A stretch of DNA of 1,086 nt from Escherichia coli (GTDB lineage: Bacteria > Pseudomonadota > Gammaproteobacteria > Enterobacterales > Enterobacteriaceae): the NCBI RefSeq assembly GCF_003334815.1, contig NZ_QOWO01000107.1; one strand, given 5' to 3'. Made by a program: the position numbers and the translations under genes. How positions within the stretch are numbered: position 1 is the stretch's first letter; each line of letters opens with the position of its first letter. Positions 78 through 644 of this stretch are shown here, piece after piece. Under the pieces are notes generated by a model. The model was not told the origin of the DNA. It was given only the letters and a program-made list of their open reading frames with translations, and made no database searches.

Positions 78-580
78 ATCAAATCAGCAGCATCGCAGCA
101 ATCATCGTCCAAATCCCCACAACCAAGAGGACAGCAATTGCGATCAAAGCCGTGACAACAATAGCCACGTTCTGCGTCACGGCGTATTTCTTCTGCAATC
201 TCTTCAGCGGAAAGGTAATCAAACTCCTCACGGGCCAGTTCCAGGACCAGCAGATGTTGTTCTGTCGGCAATGTAGACACAAAATTATCAATAGCAGCAC
301 TCAAACGTCGCTGATATAGCTCATAAACAAGACCACAACGGTGCATTAGTTCTTCGGATAATAGTTCCAGTTTTGAGCGAACGCTGTCAGCATTGAAAGT
401 GACTTCATCAGATGACATCTGAAAATCTTTGTCAGTGTCAAAACAAGACTTCATTTTTATCTCCTGCCCGTCCGGGCCCTGAATGAAAGAAAACCTGTTT
501 CCCTTCTCTGTTTTTTTATGGAACAGGAGGAATCCGGTACCATGCGACATAGACGTCATGATGTTTTTCATCTTGCTCAC
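65..580 (-). CDS. hypothetical acidic protein, 171 aa from GTG at 580 (alternative internal ATG at 454 would give 129 aa); Cys-rich C-terminal tail GYCCHGFDRNCCPLGCGDLDDDCCDAADLMEEP; no family recognised
   Basis: Long open frame (part of the 65..676 track ORF); GGAGG at 589..585 then 4 nt then GTG at 580..578; this initiation region is duplicated at the next gene; CTG/GAA/CGT-rich codon usage; roughly 34 Asp+Glu against 19 Lys+Arg by my count; stop TGA at 67..65. The track start at 676 is rejected: it has no SD and overlaps the upstream gene. Confidence 0.6.
   Translation of the reverse strand: MSKMKNIMTSMSHGTGFLLFHKKTEKGNRFSFIQGPDGQEIKMKSCFDTDKDFQMSSDEVTFNADSVRSKLELLSEELMHRCGLVYELYQRRLSAAIDNFVSTLPTEQHLLVLELAREEFDYLSAEEIAEEIRRDAERGYCCHGFDRNCCPLGCGDLDDDCCDAADLMEEP
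73..77 (-). promoter_or_regulatory. Shine-Dalgarno (GGAGG) for the 1..68 gene, embedded in the last codons (M-E-E-P) of the upstream gene
   Basis: GGAGG then AACC then GTG, with the GTG overlapping the upstream TGA as GTGA. Confidence 0.55.
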
Positions 581-589: not shown

Positions 590-644
590 TGGTAAAGTAC
601 CTGAACATATCCTGCCACCTGCACAGACAGACGGCAGGGGGTAA

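Follow-up and report, generated by a model that had tools for sequence, protein, structure and literature searches.

A run of seven A residues on the gene strand of a conjugative plasmid of Escherichia coli can be read with considerable confidence as a non-coding and functionally incidental part of the 5' leader of the ccgAII gene, left over from a decayed -10 box and start site. The stretch of DNA analysed here is 1,086 nucleotides long and is referred to as the window. The run is ordinary and mildly slippage-prone, and it is not a gene switch. The finding matters little by itself; it corrects a plausible misreading, since the long open frame that contains the run arose by accident in a single allele and no homopolymer switch controls the gene. 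The surroundings of the run are of modest interest for plasmid biologists.

Position of the run and the conserved start of ccgAII

Many conjugative plasmids of the IncI1/K/B/O complex from E. coli and Salmonella, pE2863-1 among them, match the window with 100% identity. The window is located in the plasmid leading region, between oriT/nikAB and ardA-psiAB. Every gene of the window lies on the minus strand. The gene ygcA, which ends at position 1004, is situated upstream of ygdA (645-911), which encodes a hypothetical protein of 88 residues and is transcribed in the same direction as ccgAII. The ccgAII homolog (65-454; RefSeq WP_001317525.1) encodes an acidic protein of 129 residues with a Cys-rich C terminus, and it carries the name ccgAII in R64-style annotation. 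It starts with an ATG at 454-452 and ends with a TGA at 67-65 that overlaps, as GTGA, the start of an Rpn-family gene (ygdB). The genuine 5' end of ygdB is found at 8-77, with a Shine-Dalgarno sequence and a GTG start codon at 68-66. An anti-restriction function has been ascribed to ccgAII (statement in PMC3817090).

Several other features of the region were recorded. Two repeats of about 290 nucleotides (L001 4146-4438 and 7529-7818), which are 78-95% identical, flank the ygcA-ygdA-ccgAII-Rpn block. Frpo-like single-strand promoter repeats have been reported in IncI leading regions, and the flanking repeats probably fit that published description (PMC3817090). Directly 3' of the ygdA stop codon (647-645) there is a 12-bp hairpin without a U-tail (611-638, minus strand), and in plasmids that lack the ccgAII segment its pairing is strengthened by changes from G-U to G-C. 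One record (L010, CP057399.1) has a one-base deletion beside a C5 run in ygdA, at window position 685, and leaves ygdA unannotated; the deletion is either a true frameshift or an assembly error. In GenBank CP063741, CP057335 and others, CcgAII is labelled 'cobalamin biosynthesis protein CbiX' (L002) and ygcA 'post-segregation killing protein PndC'. No family search backs either name, so that both labels look like propagated misannotations; a comparison of CcgAII with Pfam, NCBIfam and PHROGs gave no significant match. Literature searches on ygdA and ygdB found nothing relevant, and in Rfam, searched with the window at E <= 1, only a chance IRES match appeared.

The sequence TTTTTTT occupies exactly positions 511-517 of the plus strand, where it is flanked as cccttctctg TTTTTTT atgg, and it reads as A7 on the minus strand. 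The minus-strand codons CAT AAA AAA ACA, as described in the first-pass annotation, were confirmed in the sequence, and they follow the frame of a mechanically derived open reading frame at 65-676. Counted from the A of the ccgAII ATG, the run extends from -63 to -57, so its nearest edge is 57 bases 5' of the start codon. The first-pass annotation had placed it inside the coding sequence of the acidic gene. This placement does not hold: the RefSeq gene covers 65-454 and has GGAG 6 nucleotides upstream of its ATG at 454-452, homologs outside the IncI/K lineage align only from residues 13-28 onward, and the upstream frame is not conserved. Together, the RefSeq start, the N termini of the homologs and the unconserved upstream frame put the run outside the conserved coding sequence.

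The window protein belongs to the CcgAII family, as indicated by its homology to CcgAII of R46/pKM101. BLASTP against R46 CcgAII gave 51% identity over 105 residues (E = 9e-40), with an alignment that starts at residue 13. When 72,556 plasmids of PLSDB were searched by tblastn, CcgAII homologs were found in 1226 records, many of them annotated as CcgAII, and all homologs outside the IncI/K lineage align from residues 13-28 to residue 109. The closest of these, from IncI2 and IncN/R plasmids, are 100-102 residues long and begin at about residue 17. No outside homolog has a counterpart of the 42 residues added upstream by the long open reading frame. Between the window and a sister allele of the same locus, the coding sequence differs by 3, 4 and 13 substitutions at codon positions 1, 2 and 3, respectively.

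The integrity of the open reading frame was examined in 43 sequences: 36 contigs from metagenomes, six plasmid sequences and the window itself. The frame from ATG 454 is complete in 39 of them and encodes 129 residues in 36. In the other three, indels lie in the part that encodes the Cys-rich C terminus and not in the leader. These exceptions are metagenome contigs (L027, L034 and L041) that encode CcgAII of 116, 119 and 127 residues, and they are altered only within the segment CCHGFxRNCCPLGCGDL. Two of the forms, those of 119 and 127 residues, are in-frame deletions, which suggests that this segment is repeat-like and indel-prone.

The presence of such a run is by itself unsurprising, as at least one homopolymer of at least seven occurs in 18% of mononucleotide shuffles and in 25% of first-order Markov simulations of the 1086-base window. 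A second T7, again A7 on the gene strand, is located at 998-1004. It shares one base with the ygcA stop codon TGA (1006-1004), whose final A opens this second run, and it is followed by a GC-rich hairpin at 979-997.

The ccgAII leader and the Rpn relic

The 5' leader of ccgAII comprises 56 nucleotides (455-510, minus strand) and contains two small hairpins. One is formed at 485-506 by the pairing of GAAGGGAA with UUUUCUUU, and the other, GCCC/GGGC at 466-477, adjoins the Shine-Dalgarno sequence GGAG at 461-464. This leader is homologous to that of a promoter-operator-leader module of the IncX1 type. The identity is about 82% over about 70 nucleotides, and the leader, both hairpins, the Shine-Dalgarno sequence and the spacing to the ATG are all present in the window. 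About 520 IncX1-type plasmids carry two copies of the module each, and some IncF and MOBC plasmids have it as well; it precedes unrelated small genes. Examples are located in L006 (1569-1596 and 2481-2509) and L012-L015.

An intact module consists of TTGCCA, ACCTGCAAATGCAGGT, TATAAT, AAAACA, the leader, the Shine-Dalgarno sequence and the ATG. More generally, it has TTGCCA or TTGCAA as the -35 box, the palindrome ACCTGCAnnTGCAGGT, and AAAA(N)CA after TATAAT; the leader with its two small hairpins is followed by GGGAG, 6 nucleotides and the ATG. From the window, the -35 box TTGCmA, the palindrome and the TATAAT -10 box are all absent. A promoter scan scored intact modules at 11/12 and 10/12 matches. 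On the minus strand, the same scan detected no sigma-70-like site in the window, and in L001 5000-9200 its single hit fell within the Rpn gene. The possibility of a promoter at the A-run was dropped for this reason. Literature searches on the operator sequence and on IncX1 leading-region promoters returned nothing relevant, and the repeated promoter-operator unit of the IncX1 type, which is CUP-like in concept, appears to be undescribed in the literature searched.

Homology to the module breaks off within the -10 box or just upstream of it. In a hand alignment, CATAAA/AAAACAG of the window is placed against TATAAT/AAAACAC of the module, an arrangement that differs from the MAFFT alignment by one or two columns at the tract and the -10 box. 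The four A's that follow TATAAT are invariant in the alignment and sit under the 3' part of the run in the window. Across ten module copies, the pairing of the leader hairpins is kept in 96% of cells, compared with 40-67% when the pairing is slid. The covariation is not significant, with one double-sided change and an observed value that is reached by 86 of 500 shuffles.

On the other side of the run lies a second, decayed copy of the Rpn gene start. The 70-nucleotide segment at 8-77, which comprises the start of the genuine Rpn gene (ribosome-binding site, GTG and the first 20 codons), is repeated directly at 520-589 with 76% identity. The duplicate has a Shine-Dalgarno sequence AGGAGG at 590-585 and a GTG at 580-578, and this context is identical to that of the genuine Rpn start over about 30 nucleotides. 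The residues encoded by the relic lack the Rpn N-terminal motif, VSKKKNTTTPTPHDAAF having become VSKMKNIMTSMSHGTGF. In about 1900 IncI1 plasmids of PLSDB the intervening 512 nucleotides are missing, and Rpn directly follows ygdA. The last codons of ccgAII (MEEP and the stop) are encoded by the Rpn Shine-Dalgarno region, and the 12-residue C-terminal tail of CcgAII extends into the Rpn ribosome-binding site. This arrangement suggests that recombination inside the 5' part of Rpn, a recombination-nuclease gene, led to the gain or loss of the ccgAII segment.

With module homology ending in or just above the -10 box, the run sits where a leader without a promoter joins a decayed Rpn fragment. Only the leader would have survived in the IncI/K copy, with the operator, the -35 box and any usable -10 box gone, and the module would meet the decayed Rpn 5' duplicate at the break. 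We infer that the last T of TATAAT was changed to A, a substitution that would join its 'AA' to the following 'AAAA', create A7 and disable the box. Given the break between the leader and the Rpn relic, ccgAII is most likely transcribed by read-through from upstream. Such transcripts would enter from ygcA-ygdA and probably start at the Frpo-like repeat beyond ygcA, and CcgAII would be translated from its own Shine-Dalgarno sequence and ATG 454. A ccgAII gene with an IncX1-type leader, wedged into a duplicated Rpn 5' end, illustrates how leading-region genes are shuffled as modules.

The relic also explains why the run shares its frame with the gene, because only the window allele has an open frame from the relic GTG at 580-578. 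In this allele the GTG is in frame with ATG 454, 126 nucleotides away, which results in an open reading frame of 171 residues; all window-type loci with A7 and an intact coding sequence have this frame open. The sister allele, which is found in IncK2/Z, IncI-gamma/K1 and other plasmids, is much commoner and has a 13-nucleotide deletion just upstream of the run. The deletion shifts the upstream frame into the other two registers and leaves the 129-residue CcgAII unaffected. With A7, the relic frame of the sister allele encodes 36 residues and stops 2 nucleotides before ATG 454; with A6, it encodes 42 residues and overlaps the ATG 454 start by 17 nucleotides. Across the 43 sequences, the relic open reading frame is 171, 161, 166, 167, 42, 40 or 36 residues long. 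The 13-nucleotide deletion also removes from the sister allele the sequence TTCCTCCT (525-532, minus strand), which is complementary to the relic Shine-Dalgarno region (590-583). In the predicted fold of the window allele, TTCCTCCT at 532-525 pairs with the relic Shine-Dalgarno sequence. The relic Shine-Dalgarno sequence and GTG do not differ from those of a working Rpn start, so the upstream open reading frame is probably translated, and the run would then lie inside an N-terminal extension in the window allele.

Length variation and alternative roles of the run

The first-pass annotation noted that such runs are indel hotspots and proposed a comparison of tract length across isolates or deep-sequencing reads. 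A comparison among relatives gave a different answer for each allele: A6 and A7 both occur in the sister allele, so that one-base variants do exist among relatives, but the window allele is invariant in 44 of 44 E. coli genomes and shows a single A6 among four metagenome contigs. Among 466 PLSDB plasmids with the sister allele, 439 have A6, 17 have A7 and 10 have another sequence. These counts are from exact-match BLAST with queries of 94-95 nucleotides, and some of the length variants in the database could be assembly errors. The 10 others differ elsewhere, and the one that was checked has A6 together with a deletion in a G-run.

No indel was found in any of the 44 complete E. coli genomes that carry the window allele: 36 are identical over 95 nucleotides and eight have substitutions only, and since all matches span the 95 nucleotides, an indel is excluded. 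Two of the 44 were verified directly. When metagenome contigs were scanned for exact patterns, the sister allele was found with A6 31 times and with A7 once, and the window allele with A7 three times and with A6 once, the last of these on a contig with about 3x coverage. This window-type A6 contig (L043) has an upstream open reading frame of 40 residues and an intact CcgAII. Overall, one-base length variants are present at a few percent, without visible compensating change, and CcgAII is intact in each length state seen.

Two A7 cases of the sister allele were examined, one on an isolate plasmid and the other on a NODE contig from a gut metagenome with about 12x coverage and a short-read-style assembly (L003 and L016). 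They share one flanking haplotype, which is also found with A6. Sequencing noise as the source of A7 in the sister allele was rejected, since an isolate plasmid and a metagenome assembly have this haplotype in common. The shared haplotype makes A7 look like a rare inherited variant and not the result of rapid switching. Replication slippage would occasionally alter the run by one base, affecting only the register of the open reading frame left over from the Rpn start, and slippage here is most likely neutral for CcgAII.

These data bear on several other roles for the run. According to the first-pass annotation, a slipped-strand or transcriptional-slippage event within the acidic gene would switch it off or change its frame. 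The in-frame position of the run in the open reading frame at 65-676 and the A6 and A7 variants among relatives speak for such a switch, but it is extremely unlikely: the conserved coding sequence starts at 454, the upstream frame differs between alleles, all 44 window-type plasmids of E. coli have the same run length, and there is no X XXY YYZ heptamer in frame. The 129-residue CcgAII is intact whatever the tract length, with A6 and A7 in both alleles, which contradicts the proposed effect on the gene. Slippage becomes frequent only from about 8-9 or more bases, and a run of seven falls below this length. A less improbable, though still unlikely, reading is that ribosomes on window-type plasmids start at the relic Shine-Dalgarno sequence and GTG 580-578 and produce a 171-residue extended CcgAII beside the 129-residue form. 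The run would then encode Lys-Lys in the longer isoform, and a slip would alter translational coupling without turning the gene off. The identity of the relic start to the genuine Rpn start over about 30 nucleotides is consistent with this, as is the 171-residue frame that is open in every window-type A7 locus with an intact coding sequence. A computed one-base slip (A6 or A8) results in an upstream open reading frame of 40-47 residues that ends 2 nucleotides before or 17 nucleotides after the ATG 454 start, and the A6 contig with its 40-residue frame and intact CcgAII is a natural example. On the other hand, about 90% of the plasmids that bear the cassette lack the extension, as do all other homologs of CcgAII, the extension has lost the Rpn N-terminal motif, its Shine-Dalgarno sequence is predicted to pair with TTCCTCCT at 532-525, and there is no sign of selection on it. 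The suggestion that the run is incidental Lys-Lys coding therefore stands as to incidental but not as to coding, barring such an allele-specific N-terminal extension.

It is also improbable that the A-rich tract keeps a role in cis, as a weak residual -10 box (CATAAA), a bend or UP-like element, or an unstructured landing or RNase-sensitive site on the 5' side of the leader hairpins that tunes ccgAII expression early after conjugative entry. An A-rich stretch with the invariant AAAA is present here in all module copies and in both alleles, and the leader hairpins keep their pairing (96% against 40-67% when slid). Against this, there is no -35 box or operator, the last position of the -10 box is A, the promoter scan finds no site, the covariation falls short of significance (its value is reached in 86 of 500 shuffles), and the length varies without visible compensating change. 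Equally doubtful is the idea that the length of the run and the 13-nucleotide indel set the register of the relic open reading frame and so tune the amount and form of CcgAII. If it were true, the relic frame would fuse to CcgAII, stop 2 nucleotides before its start or overlap it by 17 nucleotides, and tract length would tune a putative establishment or anti-restriction protein right after plasmid entry into a new cell. We consider a leftover of the decayed -10 box and start site, which probably has no regulatory role, a far better account of the run than any of these.

Comparison with known systems

Contingency loci with homopolymers resemble the present case in that a mononucleotide run differs by one base among close relatives. 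Length variation of this kind was seen in the sister allele and in metagenome contigs, with an indel in none of the 44 window-type E. coli genomes. Unlike the runs of contingency loci, the run in the window lies outside the conserved open reading frame and outside any promoter spacer. It toggles no frame, CcgAII being 129 residues long with A6 and A7 in both alleles, it has only seven units, and its variants are rare (about 3-4%) and apparently inherited. The run also differs from programmed frameshift or slippage sites. Such a site requires an X XXY YYZ motif in the zero frame or a run of 9 or more, together with a conserved product in an alternative frame. The window has no X XXY YYZ motif in register, the alternative frames end at 40-47 residues, and there is no conserved product in an alternative frame.

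CcgAII of the IncN plasmid R46/pKM101 is described as a CUP-controlled gene (Delver & Belogurov 1997, as cited in PMC6289460 and PMC5371602). The window protein is homologous to it and is likewise encoded in a leading or establishment region beside ardA. It differs from R46 CcgAII by 12-16 extra N-terminal residues and a 12-residue C-terminal tail. CcgAII homologs are found behind three unrelated upstream regions, namely an IncN CUP promoter, an IncI2 terminator-type spacer and the X1-type leader (L052-L054 and L007 22657-23700), which provides an example of the modular shuffling of establishment genes.

The CUP concept is that of a repeated promoter-plus-operator unit before several establishment genes (PMC6289460, PMC5371602). 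The X1-type module resembles the IncN CUP as a repeated, recombination-prone promoter-plus-operator unit that precedes unrelated establishment genes. The repressor of the IncN CUP is ArdK, and there is no sequence similarity between the CUP and the X1-type module. Suspected from the ccg name, an origin of the leader as an IncN CUP remnant was rejected, as R46 contains no similar sequence; a search of R46 gave no match with <=3 mismatches and no blastn-short match >12 nucleotides.

A further counterpart is the IncX1-type module itself. The copy in the window differs from it in having neither a -35 box nor a palindromic operator nor a -10 box that could function, and has a decayed Rpn fragment upstream instead. 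The 56-nucleotide leader, the Shine-Dalgarno sequence and the spacing to the ATG are about 82% identical to those of the module, and the A-run aligns with its -10 and start region.
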